NCBI GenBank assembly: GCA_964495685.1
Contig: CAZBVQ010000001.1
Coordinates: 233,521-297,520, forward strand
Origin: an uncultured Candidatus Saccharibacteria bacterium
GTDB lineage: Bacteria; Patescibacteriota; Minisyncoccia; Phycocordibacterales; PALSA-1337
Reading direction: 5' to 3'
DNA length: 64,000 nucleotides
Below, one piece after another: positions 19,674 through 48,156 of this stretch. Every line of letters starts with the position of its first letter. Positions within the stretch are counted from its first letter, which is position 1. The notes under the pieces are model-generated. The model did no database searches. It saw only the letters and a program-made list of their open reading frames with translations, and was not told the DNA's origin. Made by a program: the position numbers and the translations under genes.

Positions 19674-19713
19674 CCCAGGCCCGGCCTAGAACTAGTTCTA
19701 GGCCGGGCCTGGG
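19674..19713. repeat. 40-bp perfect palindrome, extended double copy of the REP-like element
   Basis: CCCAGGCCCGGCCTAGAACTAGTTCTAGGCCGGGCCTGGG. Lies in the divergent promoter region between the DoxX-like operon and the ZIP transporter. Confidence 0.8.
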
Positions 19714-19768
19714 AAATTGCCAAGCATGAGGTAATACAGTAGACTGGTCATACGTATAAACCTCTCAT

Positions 19769-20497
19769 ATGAACTCAATTCTCATTGCTGTCGTGGCCTC
19801 TATTGCTGCCTTCGTGGGTGGTCTCATAGCGCTTCGATTCAAAGACAAACTTCACATTATTCTCGGCCTTTCGGCCGGTGCCGTGATCGGTGCAGCCCTG
19901 TTCGATCTTATCCCAGAAAGTATCGAGCTGGGGGGTGTTTCCCATAGTCCCGCAGAGATGCTGGTATACACAGCTGTCGGATTCTTGGCGTATTTGGTCC
20001 TTGATCGAGCATTTTCTTTTCACTCTCATGACCACAATCATCTCGATGAACATCATGAGGAATCGGCACACATTCGGGGTTCATTCGGTGCGGCAAGTTT
20101 CTGTCTCCATAGTCTCATCGATGGTATTGCCATTGGTCTCGCATTCCAGGCGTCATCGGCTATCGGCGCCGTCGTCGCTATTGCCGTTGTAGCCCACCGT
20201 TTCTCTGATGGTATCAATACGGTCGGCGTCATTCTCAAACATCGTGGTCAGAACAAGCAAGCATATATGTGGCTCATTCTCGTGGCATTGGCTCCGATAG
20301 TCGGCGCCCTAGTGACACTGTTCATAACAGTTTCAGACAGTGTGCTGGCCATCATTTTGGCTGTATTCGCCGGCTTCTTCCTGTATATTGGTGCGAGTGA
20401 CCTTATCCCTGAAGGCCACCATAGCCACTCCAAGGCACTTACCACATTCATGACCCTTGTAGGAGCGGCCATTCTCTACACTATCGTTCAGATCTAG
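19769..20497 (+). CDS. ZIP family metal (zinc) transporter
   Basis: His-rich loop HSHDHNHLDEHHEES, plus HSLIDGIAIG and HRFSDG motifs. Confidence 0.85.
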   Translation: MNSILIAVVASIAAFVGGLIALRFKDKLHIILGLSAGAVIGAALFDLIPESIELGGVSHSPAEMLVYTAVGFLAYLVLDRAFSFHSHDHNHLDEHHEESAHIRGSFGAASFCLHSLIDGIAIGLAFQASSAIGAVVAIAVVAHRFSDGINTVGVILKHRGQNKQAYMWLILVALAPIVGALVTLFITVSDSVLAIILAVFAGFFLYIGASDLIPEGHHSHSKALTTFMTLVGAAILYTIVQI

Positions 20498-20526
20498 TAT
20501 GTTCGTTGTGGTACAATATACCCAAC

Positions 20527-21837
20527 ATGCTCAAGCCTCATATTGTGATACTTGGCTCGGGATTCGGTGGCACCTATGTCGCCAAACGACTTGCGCCTTA
20601 TGTGCGTAAAGGTGCGATAGATGTCACCATCGTCAACAAGACCAATTATTTTCTCTTCACACCACTTCTGCACGAAGTGGCTACCGGCTCATTGAGCCCT
20701 GTCAGTGTCGCTGAGCCGCTCCGTGAAATTTTTGCTGGTACTGGTATTCGTATTGCTCAAGGTTCAGTTGAATCCATCGATCGTGCCGCTCACAAAGTGA
20801 CACTCGGTGCCGGTGCATCATCATGTCCTATTTCCTATGATTATCTGGTCATCGCCACGGGTGCTGAGACCAACTACTACAACATTCCTGGTGCAGAAAA
20901 ATTCACGTACGCACTCAAAAATCTCGCAGATGCCACGCGGATCCGCACACAGATCATCGATTCGTTCGAGCGTGCCATCCTCATTCAAGACCGTGAAGAA
21001 CGTGCACGATTGCTCACGTTCGTGGTCGTCGGTGGCGGTGCGACAGGTGTCGAGACAGCTGCCGAACTCGCCGAATTCGTTAGGGCTATGGCGCGTCGGT
21101 ATTATTCGGGTGTAGGTAGCTGCGACCCTGCTGATTATCGTATATGTAGCCCTGAAGAACCCAAAGTCATCCTCATTCATACAGGTCCAGAACTTCTGCA
21201 AATGTTCAAACCGTCTTTGCGTCTAGCGGCCGAGGGACGTCTGGCTGACAGCGGAGTGGATGTGCGTCTCAATACCTCAGTGGTCGAAGTGACGGCTCAG
21301 GGTCTTAGACTTTCTGTGGGTATGCCGATCCCATCCAATACCATCATCTGGGCGGCCGGCGTCAAACCAATCATTCCACATTTCGAAGGCATCATGCCGG
21401 CGTTGCTCATGGGACGTCTGGCAGTCGATCATTATTTCCGCGTCAATGGCGATGAGCATATCTTCGCACTTGGTGATACGGCGGGGTACGTCGACGCAGA
21501 TTCTCTTGGCACTGATCCGACCAAGACCAAGACCTTGCCCATGCTGGCACAAGTGGCTGAAGCCCAAGCGACGACGGTGGCCAACAACATCATTGCGACG
21601 ATGCGGAGTAAGAAATTGGTTAATTTTCATTTCCATTCCAAGGGAAGTATGGTCTCGGTGGGACAGTGGTTCGCGCTCGGAGAAATCTTTTCTATGGCCA
21701 TTTCTGGCCGTCTGACGTGGTGGATCTGGCGTACAGTGTATCTGTTCAAGTTCGCTTCATGGAAGAAGCGCACGCGTATCGCATTCGAGTGGACACTGGA
21801 TATGTTCTATCCGAGAGATATAACGAAGTTGACGTAA
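20527..21837 (+). CDS. ndh: Type II NADH dehydrogenase (NDH-2) / FAD-dependent pyridine nucleotide-disulfide oxidoreductase
   Basis: Two Rossmann GxGxxG motifs (ILGSGFGG, VVGGGATG). Confidence 0.8.
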   Translation: MLKPHIVILGSGFGGTYVAKRLAPYVRKGAIDVTIVNKTNYFLFTPLLHEVATGSLSPVSVAEPLREIFAGTGIRIAQGSVESIDRAAHKVTLGAGASSCPISYDYLVIATGAETNYYNIPGAEKFTYALKNLADATRIRTQIIDSFERAILIQDREERARLLTFVVVGGGATGVETAAELAEFVRAMARRYYSGVGSCDPADYRICSPEEPKVILIHTGPELLQMFKPSLRLAAEGRLADSGVDVRLNTSVVEVTAQGLRLSVGMPIPSNTIIWAAGVKPIIPHFEGIMPALLMGRLAVDHYFRVNGDEHIFALGDTAGYVDADSLGTDPTKTKTLPMLAQVAEAQATTVANNIIATMRSKKLVNFHFHSKGSMVSVGQWFALGEIFSMAISGRLTWWIWRTVYLFKFASWKKRTRIAFEWTLDMFYPRDITKLT

Positions 21838-21842
21838 AAGTG

Positions 21843-21877
21843 CAAAAAAGCGCGGCTGTCCCAGAGGGCAGCCACGC
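21843..21877 (-). terminator. Rho-independent terminator for minus-strand gene 21894-22805
   Basis: GCGTGGCTGCCCtctGGGACAGCCGCGC hairpin followed by a T-run on the minus strand. Confidence 0.5.
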
Positions 21878-21893
21878 ATTACTCGAAGAGAGC

Positions 21894-22805
21894 TCACTTT
21901 TTCCAGAGGATCCGATTCAACGTAATACCAACCAAATAGAAGGACTCTTTTTCCTCCACTTGTGCCGATGCATAGAGCACGTTGCCATTGATGACATTGT
22001 GCTCCAGTTGGTGGGTGAATTTCACCGTCACCGAAGGTTTCCATCCGAGGTCATCAAAAGCGGTTGGATACATTCTGGTGCCCACTGAGAACTGTGTCCC
22101 CCATGTCATGGGGAAGAGTAGCTCTTCTTCTAGTCGAGGCTGGTCGAAGTTGAGCTGGGTGACCATGACTCGGACGCGCGTGGTCGAAATGACCAATGGT
22201 AGCCCGTTCTTCTTGCGCAAGAAGGCGATCGAATAGTATCCGTACGGGTTGCCGTTGAGCAGATTGAACCCATACTTCGTACTATCCTCGACCACGAAGG
22301 AGCCGACCCATTCATGCAGAGATGCTGCGTCTTCAGGATCGATCTGTGTCGGACGCATACGTCCCTCGACTGTGTTGAGTGTTCCTTCAACCAATTTGGC
22401 ACCAAATGTCAGTCCTGGATTCTCTGCGTGTTTGAAACGAGAGAAGTTGAACCAGTTGCCGAAGGCGTCTACGGCCGCGTCACTCACCGTGTCGCCGAAG
22501 AAGGATTCACCTTGTGATTCGGCTCGTTCTGGGCCACGTGCTTCATGGTTGAAGTACGCCTTGGTCCAGGCGAAGGAGCTCAGTGGTCCGAAACGTCGGT
22601 AGCTATTCTCTCGGCCATCTTTGGCCAGGTGGTATTCGAACCAGGTGCTCCACGATGAGGTGTGGTCGGGCCGTTCAGTCAAGACGCGCTGGATTTCCCT
22701 GAGTTCTGGCGTATCAGCCAGTGCGTTGGTGTCGGATGCTCCGACACTATGAATGGTGGCCTGTGTGAGCCACCATGTGAGTAGAATCATCCGTATAATC
22801 TTCAC
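21894..22805 (-). CDS. Secreted hypothetical protein (signal peptide)
   Basis: N-terminal MKIIRMILLTWWLTQATIHSVGA. Trp/Gly/Asn-rich mature part. Confidence 0.55.
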   Translation of the reverse strand: MKIIRMILLTWWLTQATIHSVGASDTNALADTPELREIQRVLTERPDHTSSWSTWFEYHLAKDGRENSYRRFGPLSSFAWTKAYFNHEARGPERAESQGESFFGDTVSDAAVDAFGNWFNFSRFKHAENPGLTFGAKLVEGTLNTVEGRMRPTQIDPEDAASLHEWVGSFVVEDSTKYGFNLLNGNPYGYYSIAFLRKKNGLPLVISTTRVRVMVTQLNFDQPRLEEELLFPMTWGTQFSVGTRMYPTAFDDLGWKPSVTVKFTHQLEHNVINGNVLYASAQVEEKESFYLVGITLNRILWKK

Positions 22806-22991
22806 GAATTCCTCCGTGTCTAAAGGTTGGTATTATGCTTTGATTGTGCCAAAGCTGGACACATACTAGCTCGCCTAGGGGTTTGTGCAATCTTGACTGA
22901 GTGGGGTAGTGGTGTCATGAAAAAGTGTGATTTTGGCCATGGACAAAAAGTTCGTCGGACGCAGAGGCCCGGCGAACGGTGAGGGGGACGT

Positions 22992-23282
22992 TCAAGGTAA
23001 GGCGTGAACCGATGGCGAGTAGTCACTGTGTGCCCATTGGTCACCGATGTGTTTGATGTGCCCGGACCATGCGAGTGCATGTAGTACGATCCAGAGGCAC
23101 GGGTACTGAATATTGAATGTGCGTCGTCGGAAGTCTGCTCGGATTGTGTAGATTGACACAGTACCATTCCGTGGTAGTGCCTCGAATATGGTCTGGCGTA
23201 CGAGGTCGCTATGGTAACGGTAGATGATACGGCCGATCAGCAAGACAAGCAGGAATGTCAGGATCAGGATGTATGTGAGCAT
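22992..23282 (-). CDS. Small membrane protein (uncertain)
   Basis: Start trimmed to MLTYILILTFLLVLLIG. Confidence 0.25.
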   Translation of the reverse strand: MLTYILILTFLLVLLIGRIIYRYHSDLVRQTIFEALPRNGTVSIYTIRADFRRRTFNIQYPCLWIVLHALAWSGHIKHIGDQWAHSDYSPSVHALP

Positions 23283-23406
23283 AGGAAACCTTTCACGGTA
23301 TATTGTACCAATGAGAGAGATGTTTGGTAGAGGCTGCTGTGTATAACAAAATGCCGAACCGTGCTTGCGCAACGGTCCGGGTGGAAAAGGGACGAGGGAA
23401 TAAAGA

Positions 23407-23741
23407 TCAATTGGTTGCACCCATCAATTGTGCGCGGCGATGTACGAGACGAAATTGTGCGCGACGGATTTCGTTCATAGGCTTGCGCACCGGCTTGCGG
23501 CGCATGCTGGCAGTATCGCTGACCCGGGTCATGTTGCGGACGGCGGCGTCTGCCGCGATCTCAAGCAAACATTTCTCAGTCATGGTCTGTTCTTCGGGTG
23601 GCTTCCGGTTTTTCCAGGGGCCAGGACCGTCCATGAATTGTCTGACGATCCACTCACCGGGTGTGGTGCTCTTTCGTACGAGGTAAATGCTCACCTTTCG
23701 GTTTCTTACTGTGTCCCCAGGTTTGAAGGATGATTCTGCCA
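23407..23741 (-). CDS. Hypothetical small basic protein
   Basis: Start trimmed to MAESSFKPGD. Confidence 0.35.
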
Positions 23742-23879
23742 TAATGTTCAGTATGGAAGTATGGTTGAATTGTTGAAACTGTTCGTGGATTATATTAAAA
23801 CACATAGCTATTCATGTCAACTGCTCATTGGGGAGATATTTCCCATTTCAGCAAAAATAAGGTACTCTGAATCTTCGCT

Positions 23880-25415
23880 ATGGCCAAGAAATCCGTACAA
23901 TCTACCTCGCCATCCAAGGCGTTCGCTGGAGATACCGTCATCCGTTTCGATGAGGTCTCTTTCGAATGGGGACACAACAAGCCTATTCTCGATGAGGTTT
24001 CTTTCAATGTCCGTCGTGGCACCAAGGTTACTATCATGGGTCAGAATGGGGCAGGCAAGACGACGCTTTTCGGACTCATTCTAGGAGATTACAAGCCAGA
24101 ATCTGGTGAGATCCATATTACTCATGGAGCGACAGTCGCAACGGCTCGCCAGGTCATCCCTCGCGATCAGCTCGAGCTCACCGTACGTGAATTTTTTGCC
24201 ACCTGTTTCGCAGAGAAAGTCTATGATCTCGATCCGCGTATTGATGCGGTTCTCGAGGTGGTCAATTTGAGTACGCCAAAAGTAGGAACAAAAGGGGTTA
24301 CCGATACCAAGGATCGCATTGTCAAAACATTTTCTGGAGGTCAGCAGGCACGTCTCCTCCTGGCATCAGCACTTATTCAAGACCCTGATATTTTGCTCCT
24401 CGACGAGCCGACGAATAATTTGGACAAAGCGGGCATCGAACACCTCACACAGTTCCTGATTGATTACAAGAAGACCTGTCTAGTCATTTCTCACGATGCT
24501 GACTTTCTGAACGCCTTCACTCATGGCGTCTTGTATTTAGACGTTCATACCAAGAAGATTGAGCAATATGTCGGTGACTATCATGATGTGGTCGAACAGA
24601 TCTCAGCGCGTATCGAAAAAGAAAACATGGACAATGCGCGTCGTGAAAAAGAGATCGCAGAAAAGAAATATCAGGCCGGACTCTTCGCACAGAAGGGAGG
24701 TCAGATGCGTCTGGTGGCCAAGCGTATGCGTGAGAAGGCGGAAGAGCTCGAAGAGGAAATTGTTGAAGTGCGCAAAGAAGATCGCACGATCAAGCCGTTC
24801 ACCATCCCAGCGCAACCAGAACTCATCGGTGACATCGTGAATATTTCGTCATATTCGATCTTGAATCCAAAAACGCACAAGCCGGTCAAGCGTACATGCA
24901 GTGTCCGTCTGCGTCGCAAAAATCATCTTTTGTTGGCTGGTCCCAATGGGATCGGCAAGAGTACGCTTCTCGAGAGGATCGTCAATGGTGTCGAAGGCAT
25001 CACCATCCTCCCTGGTACTCGTGTCGGTTATTATCGTCAAGATTTCTCTATGATGGATTTCAACGACACGGTCTATCAATCACTCGAAAAAATTATCCGC
25101 GCTGTCGAAGGTCGTTTGGTAGAGACCGAAGTGCGGGCCGTCGCTGCATCATTTCTTATTGGTGCCGATGCTATCCATACCAAGATCGGTTCACTGTCAG
25201 AAGGGCAGAAAGGTCTGGTGGCTTTTGCACGTCTCGTCCTCCAGCGTCCCGGACTTCTCATTCTCGATGAGCCGACAAACCATATCAATTTCCGCCATAT
25301 TCCGGTGATTGCCAAGGCGCTCGATGAATACGAAGGTGCCATGATCCTGGTGTCGCACGTCCCAGAATTCGTGAAGCAGATCAGGATCGATGAGGTGCTG
25401 GATTTGGGGAAATAA
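23880..25415 (+). CDS. ABC-F family ATPase (tandem ABC domains, EttA/Uup-like)
   Basis: Two Walker A sites (GQNGAGKTT, GPNGIGKST), two signature motifs, a linker with a Lys/Glu-rich coiled coil, and no TM domain. Confidence 0.9.
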   Translation: MAKKSVQSTSPSKAFAGDTVIRFDEVSFEWGHNKPILDEVSFNVRRGTKVTIMGQNGAGKTTLFGLILGDYKPESGEIHITHGATVATARQVIPRDQLELTVREFFATCFAEKVYDLDPRIDAVLEVVNLSTPKVGTKGVTDTKDRIVKTFSGGQQARLLLASALIQDPDILLLDEPTNNLDKAGIEHLTQFLIDYKKTCLVISHDADFLNAFTHGVLYLDVHTKKIEQYVGDYHDVVEQISARIEKENMDNARREKEIAEKKYQAGLFAQKGGQMRLVAKRMREKAEELEEEIVEVRKEDRTIKPFTIPAQPELIGDIVNISSYSILNPKTHKPVKRTCSVRLRRKNHLLLAGPNGIGKSTLLERIVNGVEGITILPGTRVGYYRQDFSMMDFNDTVYQSLEKIIRAVEGRLVETEVRAVAASFLIGADAIHTKIGSLSEGQKGLVAFARLVLQRPGLLILDEPTNHINFRHIPVIAKALDEYEGAMILVSHVPEFVKQIRIDEVLDLGK

Positions 25416-25504
25416 TAGAGGGAAAGAGTAAGGAAGACGTTTGTCCCCACGAAATCCGCACTTTTTCAATCGAGCACCCTATCCTTTCTGCTATACTCAC
25501 ATTC

Positions 25505-27911: not shown

Positions 27912-27974
27912 GGGTCTTTATAAAAAATCGCCAACCCTGTCAGGAGGCCGGCGAAATTGTTGGGGGCGGGTGGG

Positions 27975-28517: not shown

Positions 28518-28539
28518 CCTACTCTCTTGTGGGTCGCTG

Positions 28540-29832
28540 TCAATTGGCCGTTTGTGCCCCCACACTATTGCCCGCCACATACCCAGTCGTCCAGCAGAGC
28601 TGCAGACTGTAGCCACCTGATGGTCGATCGATATTGAGTACATCGCCGACGATATGCAGATTGGGCACCAGCTTCGACTGCATCGTCTTGAAGTCGACTT
28701 CAGTAAGTACTACACCACCCGAAGTCACAATAGCTTTTTCTATACCAAGAAGACCTGTCGGTTGCATGTGTAAATCCTTCAAGAGTTTGACCAGATTCAG
28801 TCGTTCATCACGCGTCACGCTGTGGCAGAATGTATCTGGATTAATTCCTGAATTTTCAATAATAATTGGTACGAGCGAAGACGGGACGAGCGCATCGAGT
28901 GCGTTCTTGAACTTTTTGTTGCTTTCTTTTTTGAAGAGATCCTGGAGTGCGTCATTCAGTGTCGAATAGTCATGCTTCGGTAGTATGTCGAGCGATATCG
29001 TCACTGGGCCATATTTCAAGAGTTCACGAATATCTTTACTCATATTGAGGATAGTTGGGCCACTGACACCGAAATGGGTAAAAAGAATCTTACCTTTTTT
29101 CATGGCCTGTTTGGTTTCATTCTGGAACAGGGTAATTTTCACTTCCTTCAGTGTTACGCCTTGGAGCCGTTTCACCCAGTCATCGTGTATTTTCACCGGC
29201 ACCAACGCCGCATCGGCGTCGATGATGGTGTGACCGAGCTTTTTGAGCCACTCGAATCCTTCACCTGTCGAACCAGTCTCTGGTCGTGATTTGCCGCCAG
29301 TCGCTAGGATGAAAGATCGTGCATGAATACGCTCGCCGTTTTTGAGTTTGATGGATTCCAATTCTAGGCCCGGCCTGGAATGCGTGACTAGCTCTACCAC
29401 TTCTGCATTCGAGCGCACAGTGACATTCCCGTGCTTCATATATTCAACTAACACATCCCAGACAGACTGCGCCTTGTCGCTCACCGGAAATACGCGCTGC
29501 TCGGCTTCCACCTTGGTGGACATGCCACGCGAATTGAAAAATTCTAGTGTCTGCGTGACGTTGAATTGCGAAAACGCCGAGAACAGGAATTTGTCATTCT
29601 CCTTGAATTTGGAAAGGAGCGTACGAGTGTCGAATTCGGCATTGGTGACATTGCAGCGACCACCGCCGGTAATCAATAACTTTTTACCAAGAGACTTGTT
29701 CTTTTCGAGAAGAATCACTTTGAGTCCACGTTCGGCTGCACGTCCTGCGGCCATCATGCCAGCTGGTCCGCCACCGATCACGGCGACGTCGTATGTTTCC
29801 TGCAAATGGTGCGGGGAGGTGACTGTGGGCAT
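28540..29832 (-). CDS. HI0933/BaiN-like FAD-dependent flavoprotein
   Basis: YDVAVIGGGPAGMMAA...GGGRCNVTN. Confidence 0.85.
   Translation of the reverse strand: MPTVTSPHHLQETYDVAVIGGGPAGMMAAGRAAERGLKVILLEKNKSLGKKLLITGGGRCNVTNAEFDTRTLLSKFKENDKFLFSAFSQFNVTQTLEFFNSRGMSTKVEAEQRVFPVSDKAQSVWDVLVEYMKHGNVTVRSNAEVVELVTHSRPGLELESIKLKNGERIHARSFILATGGKSRPETGSTGEGFEWLKKLGHTIIDADAALVPVKIHDDWVKRLQGVTLKEVKITLFQNETKQAMKKGKILFTHFGVSGPTILNMSKDIRELLKYGPVTISLDILPKHDYSTLNDALQDLFKKESNKKFKNALDALVPSSLVPIIIENSGINPDTFCHSVTRDERLNLVKLLKDLHMQPTGLLGIEKAIVTSGGVVLTEVDFKTMQSKLVPNLHIVGDVLNIDRPSGGYSLQLCWTTGYVAGNSVGAQTAN
29363..29381. repeat. REP-like palindrome copy (variant TTCTAGGCCCGGCCTGGAA) inside the CDS
   Basis: Encodes SRPGLEL in frame within the HI0933-like gene. 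Confidence 0.6.
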
Positions 29833-29850: not shown

Positions 29851-29868
29851 AAGTAGTTTCGTAGTTCG

Positions 29869-30465
29869 TTATGGATTCCTGAAACAGCCGAGAGGTGCCG
29901 ATGCACTATATTGGACAGATGAGCCATGTTCATATGATGTTGCTGTATCGGATTGACCATGACTACCTATACAGAGATAGGTTTTCTTGGAGGGGAGATA
30001 TGCGGCGATCGAATAATTCGATTTCATGCCACCAGGGACATTATTGGCAACGCCCATGATGAATGTGGGTGAGCTGCCAATCTCAGAGCCACCAGCCAAC
30101 GAGAGTATGTTGTCACAGATTCGAGCCGCTTCGCTGTTGGGTGTTCGTATGGCGCCAGAGAATATGCCAGAACAAGTCGTGCCACTGGTCCCTGTGAAGC
30201 AGTAATAACTTGTTCCAATGTCACCACCACATCCTCCGAAGGGAGCCATGTCGAATTGCATGTCGGAATAGTCACCTTTGTTGGAGAATGCCTGTTCATG
30301 GATAAGTTGCAATTGGCGCATTGCCGATCGGACAGCGGCATCTTTTGCCTTGAGTCGGGCACTGCCGAGGGATACGAGGACGACACTCGAAAGTAGGCCT
30401 ATGATAGAAATTACCACGAGAAGCTCGATTAATGTGAAGCCCTTGTGAGTCAGACCTCCTTTCAT
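29869..30465 (-). CDS. Type IV pilin-like protein (prepilin N-terminal methylation motif)
   Basis: MKGGLTHKG/FTLIELLVVISIIGLLSSVVL leader. Confidence 0.8.
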   Translation of the reverse strand: MKGGLTHKGFTLIELLVVISIIGLLSSVVLVSLGSARLKAKDAAVRSAMRQLQLIHEQAFSNKGDYSDMQFDMAPFGGCGGDIGTSYYCFTGTSGTTCSGIFSGAIRTPNSEAARICDNILSLAGGSEIGSSPTFIMGVANNVPGGMKSNYSIAAYLPSKKTYLCIGSHGQSDTATSYEHGSSVQYSASAPLGCFRNP

Positions 30466-30623
30466 ACATGTATCATAGCACATGTGGGTGTTATTGACTT
30501 TCTCACCCAAATAGTATATAGTAATGGCCTATTCATCTCTCATTGTTCGCCTTTCGACTTATAGGCTTTTGATGGGATACGGCCTTACTGGCACCCATCA
30601 CTGGGCGAATAGTAATCAAATAT

Positions 30624-32917: not shown

Positions 32918-33301
32918 ATGGCAATTGCATTTCTTATTGGTCGCATCATTTTCGGAGGATATTTCTTGCTGAATTCGTACAACCACCTGGTCCATTCTGG
33001 TCACATGGTGGGATATGCACAGTCCAAGGGTGTCCCATCAGCGCGTCTCGCCATCGTCGCCTCAGGGATCCTGCTCCTCATCGGAGGTCTCTCAGTCGTC
33101 CTCGGCTATTGTCCGCTCATCGGTGCTATCGCACTCATTGTGTTCTTGGTCCCGGTGACATTCAAGATGCATGATTTCTGGAAAATTCAGGACCCCATGG
33201 CGCGCATGGGTGAGCGTATCGCATTTGAGAAAAATTTGGCGCTCATCGGTGCTGCACTCATGATGTTGGCAGTATCGGTCCCGTGGCCGTATTCTATCTA
33301 G
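32918..33301 (+). CDS. DoxX family membrane protein
   Basis: IGRIIFGGYFLLNSYNHL... four TM helices. Confidence 0.75.
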   Translation: MAIAFLIGRIIFGGYFLLNSYNHLVHSGHMVGYAQSKGVPSARLAIVASGILLLIGGLSVVLGYCPLIGAIALIVFLVPVTFKMHDFWKIQDPMARMGERIAFEKNLALIGAALMMLAVSVPWPYSI

Positions 33302-33307
33302 TGTAAT

Positions 33308-33326
33308 CCTAGGCCCGGCCTAGAAA
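33308..33326. repeat. REP-like palindrome copy (CCTAGGCCCGGCCTAGAA)
   Basis: Immediately after the DoxX stop codon, between convergent genes. Followed by a second hairpin CCCGGCCTCCtgggGGAGACCGG at 33333-33355. Confidence 0.75.
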
Positions 33327-33373
33327 TAAAAACCCGGCCTCCTGGGGGAGACCGGTGAAATCGGACTAGGAAC

Positions 33374-36130: not shown

Positions 36131-36850
36131 ATGGCGCCGATCACTTCTCAGATACAAAATCAGATCATCAGCAAACTCAAGAACGCAAAACAGTTGCGCT
36201 ATAGCGAGATCCAGCCCAAGGGTGTGCCCAATGATCTGTATAACTACCACCTCCAATTTCTGGTCAAAAAGGACTACGTCATCAAATCAGATGATGGCTA
36301 TTCGTTGTCGCCGCTCGGTGTGAAGCACGTAGCAGACTTCAATCCGCCCACAGAAGATAATGCGCCGGTCAATGTATTCAAGGTCAATGTTCTCACGGTG
36401 CTTTCGCGCATCAATAAAGGCAAAATAGAAATTCTCAATCAGGTGCGAAAGTCCAATCCTTCATATGGCAAGGTTGGTGTTATGGGTGGTGTGGTCCGCA
36501 AAGGTGAATCAACAGAAGATGCAGCCACCCGCAAACTGCTCGTCGAGACGGGTCTCGAGGCAGTTTTCAAAGTCGTCGGTATCCAACGTCGCACCATGTA
36601 CATCAAAGACGAGCTTTTCTCTGATGTGCTATTTCCGATTGCATATAGCGATGAATGTTTTGGTGATCTGATCGAAGATACCGAGTATGGTCACAACATG
36701 TGGGTGCCCATAGATGATGCTATCGAGAATGATTCTGCTGAGTTCGATTCTATCAAGAAATTACCCGATGTTCTTCGTGCCATCAAGGACGGTTCTGTTT
36801 GGAAGTTGCCATTTTTCTACGACGAGGATATTCAGAGTGGAGAGTTCTAG
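36131..36850 (+). CDS. Winged-HTH plus Nudix hydrolase fusion protein
   Basis: N-terminal wHTH-like segment. Nudix box GGVVRKGESTEDAATRKLLVETGL. Confidence 0.7.
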   Translation: MAPITSQIQNQIISKLKNAKQLRYSEIQPKGVPNDLYNYHLQFLVKKDYVIKSDDGYSLSPLGVKHVADFNPPTEDNAPVNVFKVNVLTVLSRINKGKIEILNQVRKSNPSYGKVGVMGGVVRKGESTEDAATRKLLVETGLEAVFKVVGIQRRTMYIKDELFSDVLFPIAYSDECFGDLIEDTEYGHNMWVPIDDAIENDSAEFDSIKKLPDVLRAIKDGSVWKLPFFYDEDIQSGEF

Positions 36851-36868
36851 TTCTAGGCCGGGCCTAGG
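36850..36868. repeat. REP-like palindrome copy (TTCTAGGCCGGGCCTAGGA)
   Basis: Starts on the last base of the stop codon of 36131-36850. Confidence 0.75.
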
Positions 36869-36923
36869 AAGTTACCGAAGAGTCTTCGCTAGTTTATCTG
36901 TATGGTAATAGTAGTATGAACCC

Positions 36924-37701: not shown

Positions 37702-37729
37702 TAGCGTATCGTGTGTTATAAGTAATTCC

Positions 37730-38161: not shown

Positions 38162-38221
38162 ATCGTTTCAGGAAATTTCAGCCGCCTTCACGGGCGGCTT
38201 TTTAGTGATATTATTATCGCC

Positions 38222-39345: not shown

Positions 39346-39374
39346 GGGAAATATAGTATACTAAAGCCACTACC

Positions 39375-39725: not shown

Positions 39726-39727
39726 GG

Positions 39728-40957: not shown

Positions 40958-40958
40958 G

Positions 40959-41663
40959 TTAGTTTTTGATGACGCGTTTCGTATGCTTGCCGCTGTCCTC
41001 GACAATCTCTCCGTCTCGAATATGAATAATACGGTCCGCGTGCTCAGCGACGTCTCTTTCGTGGGTGATCAAGACGATGGTACGGCCGAGCTCTTTGTTG
41101 AGTCGCTGGAATGTGCCGAGCACAATGTTGCCTGTGGCCGTGTCGAGGTTGCCTGTCGGTTCATCGGCAAGAATGAGGGAAGGGTTATTGACGAGTGCAC
41201 GAGCGATGGCTACACGCTGGATTTGTCCACCAGAAAGTTGGTTCGACTTGTGCATGAACCGGTCTTCGGTCATACCAGCACTCATCAATGCTTTGTGGGC
41301 TTGGGATTCACGTTCGTGGTGAGGTATATCTGCGTAGACGAGAGGGAGCATGACATTACGCATGACGGTGGCGCGAGGAAGGAGGTTGAATGATTGGAAG
41401 ACGAAACCGATCTGTTCGCGGCGAATCTGTGCCAGCTCATCCTGAGAGAGTTTGGATACATCATGACCATCGAGTTTGTACGTACCGGATGTTGGTGTGT
41501 CGAGTGCACCGAGGATATGCATCAGTGTCGACTTGCCTGAACCAGAAGGTCCCATGATGGCCACGAATTCTCCATCCTTGATGGTGAAGGTGACGCCACG
41601 GAGTGCGTGCGTGGCATTATCACCCGACATATAGGTTTTGGTGATATGTTTGACTTCTATCAT
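40959..41663 (-). CDS. ABC transporter ATP-binding protein (MacB/LolD-like)
   Basis: Walker A GPSGSGKST, signature LSGGQIQRVAIARA, Walker B LILADEPTGNLD. ATG start at MIEVKHITKTY. Confidence 0.9.
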   Translation of the reverse strand: MIEVKHITKTYMSGDNATHALRGVTFTIKDGEFVAIMGPSGSGKSTLMHILGALDTPTSGTYKLDGHDVSKLSQDELAQIRREQIGFVFQSFNLLPRATVMRNVMLPLVYADIPHHERESQAHKALMSAGMTEDRFMHKSNQLSGGQIQRVAIARALVNNPSLILADEPTGNLDTATGNIVLGTFQRLNKELGRTIVLITHERDVAEHADRIIHIRDGEIVEDSGKHTKRVIKN

Positions 41664-41664
41664 A

Positions 41665-43467
41665 TTAGTTGCCTGGTCGGGCGACTGCGCGTGTGGCTCC
41701 ACCGCCAGCTCTGTTGCCGCCGATGCTCGTCAAGATGTTGGGAGTCGCGGTCGTGGCTGTGCCTGAAGCGATCGTCCGAGTGATGACCCATTGACCGCGC
41801 TCGAGGCCGCTTACGATCTGCGTATTTGTATCATCCGTATCACCAGTCGTTACAGATACTTGAATCGGAGTTACCGCCGTCGTCACATTGACGGTGCGTG
41901 CTGGTCGTGTTGATCCGGTATTTTGGCCTGAACGGAATGCATAACCGCCTGTCGATGACGCGTCCTGGCCGTACATCATAGGTGAGCTTGATCCGGTTCC
42001 GTTCGTGCGATTGAGGTTGCCGGAATTGCGGGACATAGCTGTCGTCGAGGCAGGTAGAGCGCTCTCAGGTAGGATCTCGACATATTTCTTGCCATTTTGA
42101 GTCTTGATAGCGGTCGAGGGTACGATCAATACGTCCGGAGTCACCTTGGTTGCAATGCTGACATTCATGCTCATGCCGGGCTTGATGCGGTCGTCCTGAG
42201 TGTCGATTGCTACGCGCACCGTGTACGACACGACTCCTTGGGATACGGTCCCTACGAGATCGACACGTTCCACGGTACCGGTGGCGTTCAGTCCATCGAT
42301 AGCGTCGAAGGTGATCGTGACTGGTTGGCCGACGTTGACTTTGGCGGCGTCGACTTCATTCAGGGAAATATTTGCGATTTTGCGATCACCGATAATGGTC
42401 GCCACGATAGTGCTGGCACCTGCTTGGCCATAGACAGATACGGGGATGCGGCCGACGATGCCGTCGAATGGGGCACGAATGAAATAGTTGGCGTAGGTCT
42501 CTTGTGCTTGCTGAAGTGAGAGGCGTTGACTTTGGACATCGAGAGTATCAGCGCCATATATCAGTGTGCTGAGATTATTTTTTGCGCTCGCGATACCACT
42601 CTGTGCTGATACGATAGACGATAAGTCGCTATTGATCTGAGTTGACCAGGTGGTGATACTACTTGCTGCAGCAGCCGCATCGACGGCGTGATAGTCGGGT
42701 TGGTACGTCGTCACATACGTGAGTGTATTCTGGAGTGCTTGGAGGGCAGTGGCGACCATCTGGGCAGTCTGATAACTATCATCAATGAGTGTGTCGATAG
42801 TTGAGCTCGCGCTGGAGCGGCCTGACTCTTTGTATAGACGTAGTGAAGTGGCGTAGTGCTCAGCAGCCCGGTCATAGAGACGGCCAGCGGTATCGCGATA
42901 TGTGCGAGCTGTGGAGATGAGGTTTGAGGTATATTGATCGCTCAGGAATCCATCGGCATCATAGAGCATGCTCTTGATGCCAGACATGATACCTGGTAGG
43001 TCTAGATGTAGTGACGAGGCGGCATTGTATGCATCGGTATATGCCTTGGTTACAGAATTCTTGGCATTGGTGAGGTCACCATCCTTGGCAGGTTGGACGA
43101 GCTTGGCATAGGCGATACGAGCGCTCTCGAGACTGATGGCTGCGTCATGGGCATCGAGACTGACGAGTAAATCTCCTTTGTTCACGTGCTGTCCGACAGT
43201 CACGTTGATAGTCTGGACTTTGCTAGATACTTCACTGGTTACATCGAGCTGATTCTCAGCAGAAACTTGGCCGCTCCCGGTCACGGTCTGAGTGACAGAC
43301 CCTGTGCGTGCCATGGTCAGTACGTATTGCGGTGTCGAATTGGCCACTGATGATCGGTGGTAGACATAATATATGCCACTACCAATGATGATCACGATAA
43401 TGACGCTTGCCAGTTTGTGGGCCTTGGCCCAATGTCGAACGCGAGTAAACAAGGAAGGTTTTTTCAT
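41665..43467 (-). CDS. HlyD/MacA-family periplasmic adaptor with long S/T/G-rich C-terminal tail
   Basis: N-terminal TM, a biotinyl-lipoyl-like segment, a long coiled coil, and a beta-barrel. A roughly 130-aa low-complexity C-terminus. Confidence 0.8.
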   Translation of the reverse strand: MKKPSLFTRVRHWAKAHKLASVIIVIIIGSGIYYVYHRSSVANSTPQYVLTMARTGSVTQTVTGSGQVSAENQLDVTSEVSSKVQTINVTVGQHVNKGDLLVSLDAHDAAISLESARIAYAKLVQPAKDGDLTNAKNSVTKAYTDAYNAASSLHLDLPGIMSGIKSMLYDADGFLSDQYTSNLISTARTYRDTAGRLYDRAAEHYATSLRLYKESGRSSASSTIDTLIDDSYQTAQMVATALQALQNTLTYVTTYQPDYHAVDAAAAASSITTWSTQINSDLSSIVSAQSGIASAKNNLSTLIYGADTLDVQSQRLSLQQAQETYANYFIRAPFDGIVGRIPVSVYGQAGASTIVATIIGDRKIANISLNEVDAAKVNVGQPVTITFDAIDGLNATGTVERVDLVGTVSQGVVSYTVRVAIDTQDDRIKPGMSMNVSIATKVTPDVLIVPSTAIKTQNGKKYVEILPESALPASTTAMSRNSGNLNRTNGTGSSSPMMYGQDASSTGGYAFRSGQNTGSTRPARTVNVTTAVTPIQVSVTTGDTDDTNTQIVSGLERGQWVITRTIASGTATTATPNILTSIGGNRAGGGATRAVARPGN

Positions 43468-43469
43468 GG

Positions 43470-44000
43470 CTAGTAGGAGCGGTTATACATCATACCGGGT
43501 TGGTTCTGGGGATTGGTTGATGAGCCGTTCATCATGGCCGGCATGATACGGACGAGCTTGGCTTCGATCGTTCCAGTGTCATCTGGGGTGCCGATGACTA
43601 CGATGAAGTCGTCTGCTTTGACGGTCGTCGATGCGACGTTGGCACGGGCACTGCGGAGGATTGTTTCATTGGTGATACGCACAGTACGTTCGGTGCCATC
43701 ACGGTCTGAGACGATGATATGAGGTAACGAGACACTGAGTACTTTGCCGGTAGTGCCGTGCCCGCCGACGAGCTCATCAGGTCCACGTACTCCCATCATG
43801 CCACCACGCGATTGGGTGTCAGTGCGGTCGAACATGCGGAAATAGCGATCGCCGAGACGTGAGCTGAACTCAGCTTTGCGGTAGCCGACTGACATGCCTG
43901 CCCAGAAGGTGAGGGCGAGTATTAGTAATAGAGCCAGAATTCGTACGAGTACGGATGTCTTGATAGACGATGTCTTTGTTGGAGTTGATTCGGTAGTCAT
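43470..44000 (-). CDS. Membrane-anchored hypothetical protein
   Basis: A single TM after a Thr/Ser-rich N-terminus. Sits in the operon with the sigma factor and the efflux genes. Confidence 0.45.
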   Translation of the reverse strand: MTTESTPTKTSSIKTSVLVRILALLLILALTFWAGMSVGYRKAEFSSRLGDRYFRMFDRTDTQSRGGMMGVRGPDELVGGHGTTGKVLSVSLPHIIVSDRDGTERTVRITNETILRSARANVASTTVKADDFIVVIGTPDDTGTIEAKLVRIMPAMMNGSSTNPQNQPGMMYNRSY

Positions 44001-44012
44001 GATATGTAGATA

Positions 44013-44414
44013 TTAGGCGAACGCTGATAGACGAGCCATGCGCAAGAATGAACGGGCCTTCGTCGCTGTGTATGCGGCGGCGAATAGAGCCATGAGTACC
44101 AATACAGCTCCTCCCACAGGGACACTTTCCATAATAGAAAATAGGGAAGTCTTGAGATTGCTGAATACGTATGCACTATCTGATATGAAGAGCGACAGAT
44201 AATCATACAATCCAGAGCTGGTGGCTTGGCCGTGTGCGTACTGGAAAGCTGGTACGAGGGCAACGAGGGCGACGATGGCTACACTCGCGTATCCGTAGGC
44301 ACGACGTTGGGCGCGTACTATCTGTGCATGCGCGACAGCGGCCACGATCTTGTGATTGAGATCCGGTGACGGTGTGCGCGGACACATGAATGAATACGAT
44401 GCTTCTTGTCTCAT
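44013..44414 (-). CDS. Putative anti-sigma factor (membrane protein), assigned by position
   Basis: Directly downstream of the ECF sigma gene and hydrophobic. No zinc-binding anti-sigma motif seen. Confidence 0.35.
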   Translation of the reverse strand: MRQEASYSFMCPRTPSPDLNHKIVAAVAHAQIVRAQRRAYGYASVAIVALVALVPAFQYAHGQATSSGLYDYLSLFISDSAYVFSNLKTSLFSIMESVPVGGAVLVLMALFAAAYTATKARSFLRMARLSAFA

Positions 44415-44441
44415 GGTGTATTGATACTACGTCGGCCAAGG

Positions 44442-45011
44442 TTATTTTGGTGCAAGAGATTTGAGTAGCACACGTAGCTCTCGGAGAGCGCGGCGATGCC
44501 AGCTTTTGGCTGTATTCATAGGTATACCGAGGATGCCAGCTATCTCTTCGAAGGTGAGTTCTTGGTGATAGTGGAGCATGATAACGGAATAATATTCGGG
44601 TCGTAATGATGAGGTCGCCTTGGTCAGGGAAGCGGCATACTGTGCATTGTCGAATAATTCGTGAGCCAGCGGTTCGGTGTCGACGATTGATTCACTGAAT
44701 GATGTTTCCTGCTCTTCATTCTCGAGGTACGAAAAGGGAACCCCTTTTTTCTTACGCAGATGATCGAATGCGACGTTCTTGGCGATGGTGAACAGCCACG
44801 GTTTCCATTTCTTGCCAGAGGTGAATCGCCCGAGATGTTTCCAGGCACGCAGGAATGTTTCTTGGGTCGCATCTTCGGTGTCAGCATCGTCATGAAGATA
44901 GCTATATACGAAGTTGTATACAGGTGTTAGTGATCGGCGTACCAATTCTTGGAATGCGTCCGGATCTCCAGACTGATGTGAGGTGATGAGTTCCTCGTCG
45001 GCTATAGACAT
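44442..45011 (-). CDS. RNA polymerase ECF sigma factor (sigma-70 family)
   Basis: Region 2 (FQELVRR...YSYLHDDADTEDATQETFLRAWKHLGRF) and region 4 HTH. Confidence 0.85.
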   Translation of the reverse strand: MSIADEELITSHQSGDPDAFQELVRRSLTPVYNFVYSYLHDDADTEDATQETFLRAWKHLGRFTSGKKWKPWLFTIAKNVAFDHLRKKKGVPFSYLENEEQETSFSESIVDTEPLAHELFDNAQYAASLTKATSSLRPEYYSVIMLHYHQELTFEEIAGILGIPMNTAKSWHRRALRELRVLLKSLAPK

Positions 45012-45040
45012 GACGATATCATACTATATAATTCTATCTG

Positions 45041-46786
45041 ATGGTTTTTCTCATCATCTCGTTTGTGGCAGGTATTCTCACGGTGCTCGCGCCGTGCATT
45101 TTGCCACTGCTGCCTGTCATCCTAGCGGGATCAGTGACAGAGACAGTCAATCGCCGCCGCCCGTTTGTTATTATTGGCGCACTTTCAGTATCGGTATTTG
45201 TATTCACCTTACTTCTCAAGGGGACGACGGCGCTCATCATGGTGTCGCCGACAGTATGGTCATATGTGTCAGCAGTCATCTTGTGTATCTTCGGTCTGAC
45301 ATTGACCTTGCCTGAGGTGTGGGCGCGGATCGTGCTCAAGATACCAGGACACAACAAGCCGGACCGCTGGATATCTCGCGGCTACGGGTCAGCCCATTCA
45401 TTCTGGACAGATGTGGTGGTCGGCGCTGCACTAGGACCTGTCTTTACTACCTGCAGCCCAACATTTTTCGTCATCTTGGCGACTGTATTGCCGCAAAGCT
45501 TCTCGGTGGGTATTGTGGATCTTATCGCGTATATTCTTGGGCTGGCCTTGGCATTACTTGTTATCGCATGGGTCGGGCAGCGCGTTATCGACAAGCTTGA
45601 GTGGGCCACCAATCCTTATGGTTGGTTCAGGAAAGTGTTGGGCATCCTCTTCATTCTGGTGGCAATTTCTATCGCTACGGGATATGACAAGAAAATAGAG
45701 ATGCATATCCTCGCCTCAGGTTTTTTCGATGTTACCAAGGTGGAACAGTCTATCAAGCAGCGTTTGGAGGGAGGTGTCCAGAAACAGGGCGCGGTATCAT
45801 CTGAAGATGGCAAGCCAGTTCTTTCGGTCAAGGATATCCCTGGTGTCCCGTATACAGAGTTCACGGGTATTGCTGGATATATAAATACTGATCCCATCAG
45901 ATTGGCCGATGTGGTGGGCAAGAAAGTCATCCTCGTCGATTTCATTGATTACACGTGCATCAATTGTCAGCGTACATTCCCGTACCTGAATGATTGGTAT
46001 ACGAAATACAAAGATCAAGGATTAGAAATTGTCGCTATTCATACACCAGAATTTTCTTTTGAGAAAGACAAGCAAAATGTCGAGAAGGGTATTGCTCAGT
46101 TTGGTCTGAAGTTCCCGATCGTGCTCGATAATGATTATATGACATGGAATGCTTATCGTAATCAGTATTGGCCACACAAATATCTCATTGATATTCATGG
46201 TAAGGTTGTCTATGACCACATCGGTGAAGGTGGCTATGATGAAACAGAGCGACATATCGTCGAGTTGTTGAACGAACGCAAGCAGGTCCTCAATGAATCT
46301 GGGTCAGTACGCGGAGGAGTCACTGCTCCAGCTCCCGTGATACAGGCACGTAGTCCAGAGACCTATTTTGGCGCGACCCGAAATGATAATTTCGCTAATG
46401 GACGTACGCACACCATAGGAGCCGGTACATTCAAGGTACCGACACTTCTTGAACCCAACTATTTTTATCTGGGTGGCGATTGGAAGATCGACCGTGAGTA
46501 TGCCGAGGCCGATTCCGAAGACGCACAGATCTCATTTGTCTTCAATGCAGCCAAGATGTATATCGTGGCGCAAGCGCCAGAAGGATCGTCGGTGACGGCC
46601 AAAGTTTTGATTGATGGTAAACCGATATCAATGACTCAGAGCGGGGCTGATGTTTCAAATGGTACACTCCTCATTGATTCTTCGCGTCTGTATCAGGTGT
46701 ATCAGAATACAACTGCTGGTCAGCACCGGATCGATATTATTTTCTCGAAGCCGGGTGCGCACGTATTCACATTTACCTTTGGCTAG
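45041..46786 (+). CDS. CcdA/DsbD-like transmembrane thiol-disulfide transporter fused to thioredoxin-like (TlpA/redoxin) domain
   Basis: TM region with LAPCILPLLPV. C-terminal redoxin domain with a CxxC (YTCINCQ). Confidence 0.8.
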   Translation: MVFLIISFVAGILTVLAPCILPLLPVILAGSVTETVNRRRPFVIIGALSVSVFVFTLLLKGTTALIMVSPTVWSYVSAVILCIFGLTLTLPEVWARIVLKIPGHNKPDRWISRGYGSAHSFWTDVVVGAALGPVFTTCSPTFFVILATVLPQSFSVGIVDLIAYILGLALALLVIAWVGQRVIDKLEWATNPYGWFRKVLGILFILVAISIATGYDKKIEMHILASGFFDVTKVEQSIKQRLEGGVQKQGAVSSEDGKPVLSVKDIPGVPYTEFTGIAGYINTDPIRLADVVGKKVILVDFIDYTCINCQRTFPYLNDWYTKYKDQGLEIVAIHTPEFSFEKDKQNVEKGIAQFGLKFPIVLDNDYMTWNAYRNQYWPHKYLIDIHGKVVYDHIGEGGYDETERHIVELLNERKQVLNESGSVRGGVTAPAPVIQARSPETYFGATRNDNFANGRTHTIGAGTFKVPTLLEPNYFYLGGDWKIDREYAEADSEDAQISFVFNAAKMYIVAQAPEGSSVTAKVLIDGKPISMTQSGADVSNGTLLIDSSRLYQVYQNTTAGQHRIDIIFSKPGAHVFTFTFG

Positions 46787-46809
46787 TTGTGTGATATTCT
46801 GTCTCCATT

Positions 46810-46914
46810 ATGGCAAAACGAGCATCAGTTCAGAAGAAGGGTTCACGTTCACGCAAGACCACCAAGCGTCTTGTGGCCAAGCGTGCCCGTCTAGCAAAAA
46901 AGCGCGGATACTAA
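46810..46914 (+). CDS. Small highly basic protein (34 aa), possibly ribosomal-like, not in the ORF track
   Basis: MAKRASVQKKGSRSRKTTKRLVAKRARLAKKRGY. Confidence 0.25.
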   Translation: MAKRASVQKKGSRSRKTTKRLVAKRARLAKKRGY

Positions 46915-46965
46915 TTCCTGCGCTAGTGCTAGGACATAAACTTCCCGATATTCGGGCAGTTTTTG

Positions 46966-47133
46966 TTACCAGCTGGCGATTTTGGCACCAACGTAGATAC
47001 CGACGAGGCCGCCGATGGTGCTACCGATGATTCCTGACATCGACAAGGTGCCCGCTCCCCAGAGCGTGGGGATCCAGCCACCGACGATACTACCGACGAG
47101 TACGCCGATCCAGATGAGATGTCTTGTGTCCAT
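46966..47133 (-). CDS. Small membrane protein, GlsB/YeaQ/YmgE-like (55 aa), not in the ORF track
   Basis: MDTRHLIWIGVLVGSIVGGWIPTLWGAGTLSMSGIIGSTIGGLVGIYVGAKIASW with Gly-zipper repeats. Confidence 0.35.
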   Translation of the reverse strand: MDTRHLIWIGVLVGSIVGGWIPTLWGAGTLSMSGIIGSTIGGLVGIYVGAKIASW

Positions 47134-47157
47134 TACTAGATAGTATACAATACATGC

Positions 47158-47715
47158 ATGTCAAGCGTGTCCACAGGTGAACGATCAGCCACTGCCGTGT
47201 TCGCCAATGGTTGTTTTTGGTGCACAGAGGCAGTCTTCTCGTCGCTCAAAGGGGTCAAGTCTGTCGTCTCCGGATATACGGGCGGCGCAACACCAGATCC
47301 GACATACGAGGTCGTTCATACAGGCAGGACAGGTCATGCTGAAGCGATCAAGATAGAGTATGACCCAGATACGATTTCGTATGAGGATCTCTTGAATGTG
47401 TTCTTCAATACACATGATCCGACGACACTCAACAGGCAGGGCAATGACATTGGTACTGAGTATCGTTCGGGTATTTTTTACTTGAATGAGGAGCAGCGCG
47501 TCGCAGCTGAGACATTGGTGAAAGAGCTCAATGATACCAAGGCATATGACAAACCTGTAGTGACGACAGTCCAGCCGCTTGAGGTCTTCTATCCAGCTGA
47601 GTCGTATCATCAGGAATTTTATAAGTATCATTCTGACGAGCCGTACTGCCAGATTGTGATTGCGCCCAAGTTGGAGAAGCTACAGAAGCGATTTGCGGAA
47701 TTATTAAAGCAGTAA
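47158..47715 (+). CDS. msrA: Peptide methionine sulfoxide reductase MsrA
   Basis: GCFWC active-site motif. Confidence 0.9.
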   Translation: MSSVSTGERSATAVFANGCFWCTEAVFSSLKGVKSVVSGYTGGATPDPTYEVVHTGRTGHAEAIKIEYDPDTISYEDLLNVFFNTHDPTTLNRQGNDIGTEYRSGIFYLNEEQRVAAETLVKELNDTKAYDKPVVTTVQPLEVFYPAESYHQEFYKYHSDEPYCQIVIAPKLEKLQKRFAELLKQ

Positions 47716-47716
47716 A

Positions 47717-47735
47717 TTCTAGGCCGGGCCTAGAA
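47717..47735. repeat. REP-like palindrome copy (TTCTAGGCCGGGCCTAGAA)
   Basis: Between the msrA stop and the msrB start. Confidence 0.8.
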
Positions 47736-47742
47736 AAATAAT

Positions 47743-48120
47743 ATGAATGAAGAAGAACTCAAAAAGAAATTAACACCTGAGGAATATCACGTGCTCCGTC
47801 AGAAGGGTACCGAGGCGCCATTTTCAGGGAAATTACTTCACGACGAACGCGATGGTATGTATACCTGCAAAGTATGTGGATCCAAGCTCTTTTCTTCAGA
47901 TGCAAAGTTTGATTCAGGTACGGGGTGGCCATCTTTTGATCAGGCGCTGCCTGGCGCGGTCAAGGAAACAGTTGATACGGAACATGGCATGATTCGTACT
48001 GAGATAACCTGTGCTACATGCGGCTCTCATCTCGGTCATGTCTTCAATGATGGTCCGACTAAAACAGGGATGAGGTATTGTCTCAATTCAGTGTGCCTGG
48101 ATCTGGAGGAGGCAAAATAA
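47743..48120 (+). CDS. msrB: Peptide methionine sulfoxide reductase MsrB
   Basis: CxxC zinc site and [13 protein letters not shown] catalytic motif. Confidence 0.9.
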
Positions 48121-48137
48121 AACCCCAGTTGTTGAAT

Positions 48138-48156
48138 TTCTAGGCCCGGCCTAGAA
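48138..48156. repeat. REP-like palindrome copy (TTCTAGGCCCGGCCTAGAA)
   Basis: Between convergent msrB and aspS. It ends 1-2 nt before the aspS stop (hand-counted). Confidence 0.8.

Follow-up and report, generated by a model that had tools for sequence, protein, structure and literature searches.

Rickettsia palindromic elements (RPEs) are selfish sequences of ~100-150 bp, found in frame in protein-coding genes, where they add tens of residues to the product. Repeats of the small dispersed repeat (SDR) and Volvox type measure ~20-30 nt, can form hairpins and are spread in the genome as non-coding sequences; SDRs, whose termini are conserved, sit nested within other repeats. In repetitive extragenic palindromic (REP) elements, the head tetranucleotide recognised by the transposase is of the GTAG type. 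REP and REPIN elements are mobilised by REP-associated tyrosine transposases (RAYTs) in gamma-proteobacteria and others, the RAYT gene is flanked by REPs, and the elements occur mostly as inverted doublets (PMC3116915); the same article mentions the SDRs of cyanobacteria, and another deals with short palindromic repeats in Volvox organelle genomes (PMC2670323). Here we describe a 19-bp palindrome, TTCTAGGCC(C/G)GGCCTAGAA, that recurs in a 64-kb stretch of DNA (the window) from metagenomic contig ENA ERZ27309394 k141_127337 (521,699 bp), whose genes have their best protein relatives in genomes named Parcubacteria, Taylorbacteria, Paceibacterota or Patescibacteria. Full-text literature searching found no description of REP-like or comparable dispersed repeats in Patescibacteria or the Candidate Phyla Radiation. 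With a probability of about 60%, we consider the palindrome to be a miniature non-autonomous mobile (or otherwise copy-propagated) repeat, recently multiplied in one Patescibacteria (Paceibacteria-type) species.

The analysis covered the window and the 10 kb past its right end (stretch L080), which makes 73.8 kb or ~14% of the genome; for the whole window, gene calls and precomputed Pfam hits were those supplied with the contig. The exact form, TTCTAGGCCSGGCCTAGAA, is present in the window only as copies 5 and 6 of Table 1 (exact search). When 3 mismatches were allowed, 7 units were found at 6 loci, with 0-2 mismatches each, for 0.00 expected from 100 dinucleotide shuffles; the 11-nt core AGGCCSGGCCT was present 7 times in the window, for 0.29 expected. 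No lone half-site was found there. Two further copies in the adjoining 10 kb bring the totals to 9 units at 8 loci, a density of ~0.12 per kb. These loci cluster within about 53 kb, the first 19.6 kb of the window being devoid of copies. Inexact units of the window differ from the consensus by 1-2 transitions, which are confined to positions 2/18 and 4/16. On the + strand, the centre base is C in units 1a, 2, 3 and 6, and G in units 1b, 4 and 5; the centre of the palindrome being odd, every copy represents a single 19-bp element in either orientation, with the centre read as C or G. As to a longer element, the flanks of the units are unrelated, except for units 1b and 4, which share 27/30 nt; this shared flank was considered as part of the element and rejected, being partly ancestral at the NUDIX locus. 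No Rfam family was found at the motif copies.

A sequence-only reading of the window had reported six copies, one of them a 40-bp perfect palindrome at 19674-19713. The motif was indeed recovered at all six places, with two exact copies only and four coordinates that had been one base off. The long palindrome is perfect and made of head-to-head units as described; its true length is 42 bp, the 40 bp being the inner part. The same reading had envisaged that the copies might be assembly artefacts; this is answered by the recurrence of the same copies in contigs of several samples, and the element is conserved within the species. The suggested check of stem-loop stability also came out positively. 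The predicted fold of a single unit, on either strand, has a stem of 8 bp, a loop of 3 nt and an energy of -8 to -14 kcal/mol; for copy 6, the values are -13 to -13.6 kcal/mol over the two strands, and the doublet is predicted to reach -47 kcal/mol.

Comparison with relatives shows the palindrome to be additional DNA in places where the sister species lack it. Syntenic loci of ~20 kb were analyzed for three sister species (L072-L078), whose blastn pieces are 66-83% identical to the window, mostly 70-76%, with 88-94% amino acid identity for MsrB. These loci contain no motif copy and no other shared palindrome. In dnaE, the sister sequence ATA TTC GGC GAC CGT aligns with GTA TT[T TCT AGG CCC GGC CTA GAA] ACA GAC CGT in the window species, a net gain of 18 nt; the corresponding proteins read FYKKVFG-DRLY in relatives and FYKKVF-SRPGLET-DRLY in the window species, which is 6 aa longer. 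At the 3' end of the NUDIX gene, 26 nt (TTCTAG, the motif and A) stand in the window for 9 nt in a sister (L073), a net gain of 17 nt; both share the conserved downstream flank GTTACCGAAGAGTCTTC. The msrA-msrB spacer is 27 nt long in the window species, while sisters have 13 nt or a padR gene instead. At the junction between msrB and the aminoacyl-tRNA synthetase gene, sister L077 has an ordinary terminator with A and T runs on its flanks.

A closer lineage, at 90-96% nucleotide identity (SRR12487013 and SRR12487045), served to date these events. Copies 2, 5 and 6, the ones that could be checked there, are unchanged, and copy 2 is intact even where the flavoprotein gene that contains it is 86.6% identical at the nucleotide level. 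Since copies are absent from the 70-76% sisters and kept in the 90-96% lineage, the expansion of the motif took place after the split from the former and before the split from the latter. In addition, a 1.78-kb segment (45029-46805), which contains a gene for a 581-aa protein with AhpC-TSA/thioredoxin domain, is cleanly missing from contigs of the 90-96% lineage (L056 and L058); no motif copy lies at its boundaries.

The placement of copies is far from random. Six of the eight loci fall into the 11.8% of the DNA that is intergenic (binomial P = 6e-5), so that the intergenic enrichment expected by the sequence-only reading is borne out. Within the window itself, five loci are intergenic and sit tightly against stop codons or between convergent genes, as that reading had stated, copy 2 being the coding one. 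All five copies at gene 3' ends are 0-5 nt from a stop codon. Copy 3 is situated just before a canonical terminator (33334-33355) of the minus-strand gene; copy 4 comes after a duplicate TTCTAG and ahead of an older hairpin (36876-36888), the next gene being 54 nt from the copy; copy 5 starts 1 nt past the msrA stop and ends 7 nt ahead of the msrB ATG; and copy 6 is 1 nt from the stop codon of the class II aminoacyl-tRNA synthetase gene. Copy 1 is different in that it lies between the divergent genes 19182..19673(-) and ZIP, 19769..20497(+), and ends 2 nt ahead of a weak -35-like hexamer of the ZIP gene.

What the extragenic picture had overlooked is the entry of the element into coding sequence, in frame. 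Two of the three frames on each strand of the palindrome contain TAG, and the sole open frame reads S-R-P-G-L-E. Both coding copies, in the flavoprotein gene and in dnaE, use this frame. In the flavoprotein, SRPGLE is part of a loop that differs in length between relatives and from solved structures. These copies thus behave as an in-frame palindromic coding element of the RPE kind, placed at a permissive site and absent from orthologues. We conclude that the motif survives almost only in short non-coding DNA by stop codons and, within genes, only in the stop-free frame, as SRPGLE in a length-variable loop.

Table 1. Copies of the palindrome in the window (copies 1 to 6) and in the adjoining stretch L080
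Copy	Position	Sequence	Placement
1 (doublet)	19673-19714	Units 19673-19691 (TCCCAGGCCCGGCCTAGAA) and 19696-19714 (TTCTAGGCCGGGCCTGGGA), head-to-head around CTAG; perfect 42-bp palindrome	
2 (coding)	29362-29380	TTCTAGGCCCGGCCTGGAA	Within HI0933-like flavoprotein gene 28540..29832(-)
3	33307-33325	TCCTAGGCCCGGCCTAGAA	5 nt past DoxX stop (TAG 33299-33301), between convergent genes
4	36851-36869	TTCTAGGCCGGGCCTAGGA	Directly 3' of TAG stop of NUDIX gene 36131..36850(+)
5	47717-47735	Exact, centre G	Fills the 27-nt msrA-msrB spacer
6	48138-48156	Exact, centre C; flanks lengthen the palindrome to 25 bp (48135-48159)	Between convergent msrB and class II aminoacyl-tRNA synthetase gene
L080, first	L080 17856-17874		Directly abuts dnaE stop codon
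L080, second	L080 20674-20692	Exact	Inside dnaE

One motif copy also appears to mark a place where strains differ. A 918-bp contig from another sample (ERZ27248706 k141_1059905, hereafter L086) is 99.8% identical to the window through DoxX and copy 3, and synteny is lost 1 nt past the motif. The remainder of this contig (583-918) belongs to a different gene, an ABC-membrane paralogue, which starts 7 nt past the motif; msrB starts at an equal 7-nt spacing past copy 5. Judged from its sequence, this junction is what recombination between two motif copies would give. As for the doublet, five contigs of 0.2-1 Mb carry the ZIP gene by the 42-bp palindrome, one of which was retrieved and spans the palindrome, the other four being known by neighbouring genes only. 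Short k-mer Logan contigs from two samples stop inside the palindrome (L070, 1-30; L088 and L089, with the gene at 85 from the contig end), so that the repeat fragments assemblies of this kind.

We then consider the distribution of the motif in public collections. A scan of 185,579 species genomes with the degenerate pattern gave 53 matches, none from the source organism, for ~70 expected by chance (information-content estimate); matches were thus at chance level apart from two Paceibacterota metagenome-assembled genomes (MAGs). A scan of JGI metagenomes returned 7 unrelated stretches, and the motif matched none of the viral contigs scanned. A variant, TCCCAGGCCSGGCCTGGGA, is present in 4 exact copies in one Paceibacterota MAG (37% GC) and in 2 copies in a Parcubacteria MAG; the genomes bearing it are Paceibacterota Gw_Eff_bin_515 (JAGOUR01) and bin.45 (JBEBAY01). 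Half of its copies (3/6) are bordered by A and T runs, in the manner of bidirectional terminators, and the other 3/6 are coding. All three coding copies read P-R-P-G-L-G, in the frame equal to that of SRPGLE, in loop regions of phosphosugar mutase, RsmE and MnmA. The outer arms of copy 1 in the window are of the TCCCAGG type, as in this variant family. The element type thus extends beyond a single species and has sequence variants specific to lineages.

A bolder proposal, which we regard as doubtful, would be a family of 19-23 bp palindromes, YYCYAGGCCSGGCCTRGRR, specific to Paceibacteria (Candidate Phyla Radiation). Such a family would spread independently of RAYTs, for example by hairpin-templated or microhomology-mediated copying or through an unrecognised enzyme; it would enter essential genes such as dnaE in frame, always as an x-R-P-G-L-x loop, and provide breakpoints for strain rearrangements.

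Under the mobile-repeat reading, the motif would be propagated as a hairpin-forming unit by some copying activity. The hairpin, with its 8-bp GC-rich stem and 3-nt loop, formed from single-stranded DNA or RNA of either strand, is probably what the copying machinery recognises. Purifying selection would then spare only harmless insertions. In transcripts, the hairpin may secondarily serve as a 3' end barrier, which would not be needed for termination, and the copies may serve as short homology for rearrangement, as suggested by the one strain breakpoint of L086. Several observations speak against this reading. The precomputed Pfam hits of called genes, in 74 kb of the 521,699-bp contig, include no transposase of any kind, Y1/RAYT (PF01797) included, and no conserved flanking tetranucleotide was found. 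Close strains revealed no presence/absence polymorphism that would speak for current activity. No target-site duplication was found either, including at the dnaE and NUDIX junctions, and the junctions of the insertions are blurred, the species compared being too diverged to offer exact empty sites. Furthermore, the genome-wide copy number is an extrapolation from ~14% of the genome, and the breakpoint in L086 is seen in a single contig of 918 bp.

The copies could instead be selected RNA elements, the stop-proximal hairpin acting as a U-tract-independent terminator, an insulator or a block to 3' exonucleases, like REPs in some E. coli operons. Five of the six intergenic loci are within 0-5 nt of stop codons, and at the msrB/tRNA-synthetase junction the motif stands where sister L077 has a canonical bidirectional terminator. 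The variant found in other Paceibacterota (L012, L028 and L036), with its bordering A and T runs, resembles true bidirectional terminators; stems are stable on both strands, and across the family U-A, U-G and C-G pairs are seen at stem positions 2/18 and 4/16. However, direct reading of the flanks revealed no U- or T-tract after the window copies, and a scan with the terminator consensus called 0 motif copies, while canonical terminators nearby were called. Copies 3 and 4 were inserted between the stop codon and a pre-existing terminator hairpin, copy 5 lies within the msrA-msrB operon, copy 1 is in a 5' region, and two copies are coding. Sister species live without the motif. Among 15 units taken from three genomes, two stem pairs vary; with 124/500 shuffles reaching the observed score, the covariation lacks significance. 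The motif is not a canonical intrinsic terminator, and the terminator-like role first attributed to it has to be abandoned. A selected RNA role is compatible with a mobile origin, the two readings not being exclusive; we keep it as an account of function, one that we think unlikely. The choice of the RNA strand from G-U versus C-A mismatches was tried and dropped, as independent events were too few and coding copy 2 pointed the opposite way.

The perfect two-fold symmetry of the 19-mer about an odd centre, with symmetrical arm changes in unit 7 as well as in the variant family, would also befit the binding site of a dimeric protein. This could be an operator-type regulator, or a chromosome-organising protein with sites of the parS, matS or Noc kind, which cluster and may be intragenic. 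The clustering of the eight loci, the end of copy 1 just ahead of the -35-like hexamer and the presence of a ParB_N-methyltransferase fusion gene (1646..2983) agree with this idea. Against it, most copies are at gene 3' ends rather than at promoters, copy 1 alone being in a 5' region; sisters lack the motif although their genes and synteny are the same; and the neighbours (dnaE, tRNA synthetase, NUDIX, DoxX, msrAB, flavoprotein) make up no coherent regulon. Nor does a binding site explain the 18-nt in-frame insertion in dnaE or the closeness to stop codons, and the motif is unlike canonical parS. An operator is recognised by location in promoter regions and by conservation of site and regulated genes in related species; only copy 1, in its 5' region, comes near the former, and no copy shows the latter. 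We therefore rate this explanation as very unlikely, and the suggestion that the 42-bp palindrome is an operator finds no support: the same sequence lies past stops and in two coding regions, and it is absent from syntenic sister loci that keep the genes. The centre base, proposed as a mark of orientation, is as described, with no significant relation to gene direction or GC skew: relative to the nearest gene, the G-centre strand is sense for 6 units and antisense for 3, and the split relative to the GC-skew strand is 5:4. At first every unambiguous copy had seemed to be sense, a pattern that did not survive the addition of the two dnaE copies. A restriction or methylation footprint was likewise discarded, as CTAG, GGCC, CCSGG and CCWGG counts are near Markov expectation.

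Least probable of all, and in our view hardly credible, is a role of the motif as a DNA uptake sequence, biasing natural transformation and accumulated as in Neisseria or Pasteurellaceae. In these bacteria, inverted pairs of uptake sequences double as terminators and coding copies occupy tolerant frames. A similar distribution is found here, with both coding copies in the only stop-free frame and in length-variable loops, and intergenic copies at terminator positions; in addition, one copy is in a genome-maintenance gene, dnaE, and a prepilin-type N_methyl protein is encoded at 29869..30483. Patescibacteria are also thought to rely on DNA uptake. However, known uptake sequences occur at ~1 per kb, for ~0.12 per kb here, and the absence of single half-sites means that the unit consists of the entire palindrome. 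Sister species lack the motif, and in dnaE it appears as inserted DNA, not as the product of point substitution. DNA uptake sequences (DUS) and uptake signal sequences (USS) have a very dense, short, non-palindromic core common to related species, a description that does not fit the motif. The same applies to MITEs, which are 50-500 bp long with terminal inverted repeats and a target-site duplication, while the conserved unit here is 19 bp with flanks that are unrelated except for one pair. The reading of the motif as a mobile or copy-propagated repeat is thus the one we prefer.

Some observations concern the neighbourhood of the copies. In the window species, msrAB looks like one operon, padR being absent and the motif filling the spacer; in three sister-species loci, padR lies between msrA and msrB (for example L072 9384-9779 and L074 9397-9714). 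Upstream of msrB, two TTCTTA-N6-TAAGAA palindromes are found in L074, and related, though imperfect, sequences in L072. A PadR-like operator was considered as a relative of the motif; the sisters' TTCTTAC-N4-GTAAGAA palindromes upstream of msrB share with it only the outer TTCT/AGAA, which was judged coincidental. Next to copy 1, in the region 17845-19673 (-), the gene for a cohesin-domain protein (446 aa as called) has a 163-aa open reading frame (ORF) ahead, whose start codon adjoins the 42-bp palindrome; both are overlapped by a 603-aa ORF in a different frame, which makes the gene model of this region uncertain. In a sister-species contig with a nanopore-style name (L084 10001-13082), dnaE and several other genes are fragmented, probably by frameshift errors of the assembly.

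Elsewhere in the window, two structured RNAs were found: a LOOT RNA (RF03000) at 173-288(+), with 92 bits for a gathering score of 46.4, and an RNase P RNA class A at 57210-57634, with only 108.5 bits for a gathering score of 100, as would suit a divergent RNA of Patescibacteria. A palindrome with 12-bp arms, ACAAACCCCCGAGAAATCGGGGGTTTGT (57607-57634), begins at the last three bases of the RNase P RNA and is terminator-like. The first 10 kb (1-10000) have a GC content of 0.38-0.44, compared to about 0.49, and are probably an acquired island; they contain no motif copy, and their genes include a ParB_N + N6_N4 DNA-methyltransferase fusion (1646..2983, -), DUF5677 and many without Pfam hits.

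The presence of a 19-bp element in gene ends and in an essential polymerase gene would mean that even the tiny, gene-dense genomes of Patescibacteria, a little-studied phylum, host proliferating selfish DNA, in a form hardly larger than the smallest size that a mobile sequence can have. The copies could be used as natural markers to type strains and to date the splits between lineages. An undescribed mobilisation mechanism would be involved if the copying enzyme is not a RAYT.

How does the motif compare with known systems? It shares much with REPs and REPINs, being a short palindrome that forms a stem-loop, repetitive and predominantly extragenic with two in-frame coding exceptions, lineage-specific, present in both orientations, often at gene 3' ends, and found once as an inverted doublet with a long hairpin. 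It differs from them in that it is a nearly perfect palindrome of 19 bp, in that singlets prevail (7 singlet loci for 1 doublet), and in that its nine units share no flanking bases beyond A or T at one end, with no conserved head sequence. The in-frame coding copies and the Patescibacteria host are further differences, as is the lack of a RAYT in the 74 kb. The initial description as REP-like thus holds for lineage specificity, mostly extragenic location, hairpin formation and double orientation; our best reading is that the motif is REP-like in behaviour and a candidate member of the REP/RAYT systems.

With RPEs the motif has in common its palindromic nature and its survival, in frame, in an essential gene as an added surface loop, as well as intergenic copies and a reduced genome; it is much smaller, 19 bp, and adds six residues only (SRPGLE). 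Its similarity to Rho-independent terminators consists of a GC-rich stem-loop just past stop codons, usable on both strands, and of the A and T runs around the Paceibacterota variant; unlike ordinary terminators, the window copies have no U-tract and the sequence is identical at every site. SDRs and the Volvox repeats are likewise very small, hairpin-capable and able to spread without coding capacity; their sequences and hosts are different, and no relation by descent is implied. On present evidence, the palindrome is best seen as a modest extension of the REP/SDR theme to Patescibacteria, and not as a new kind of system.

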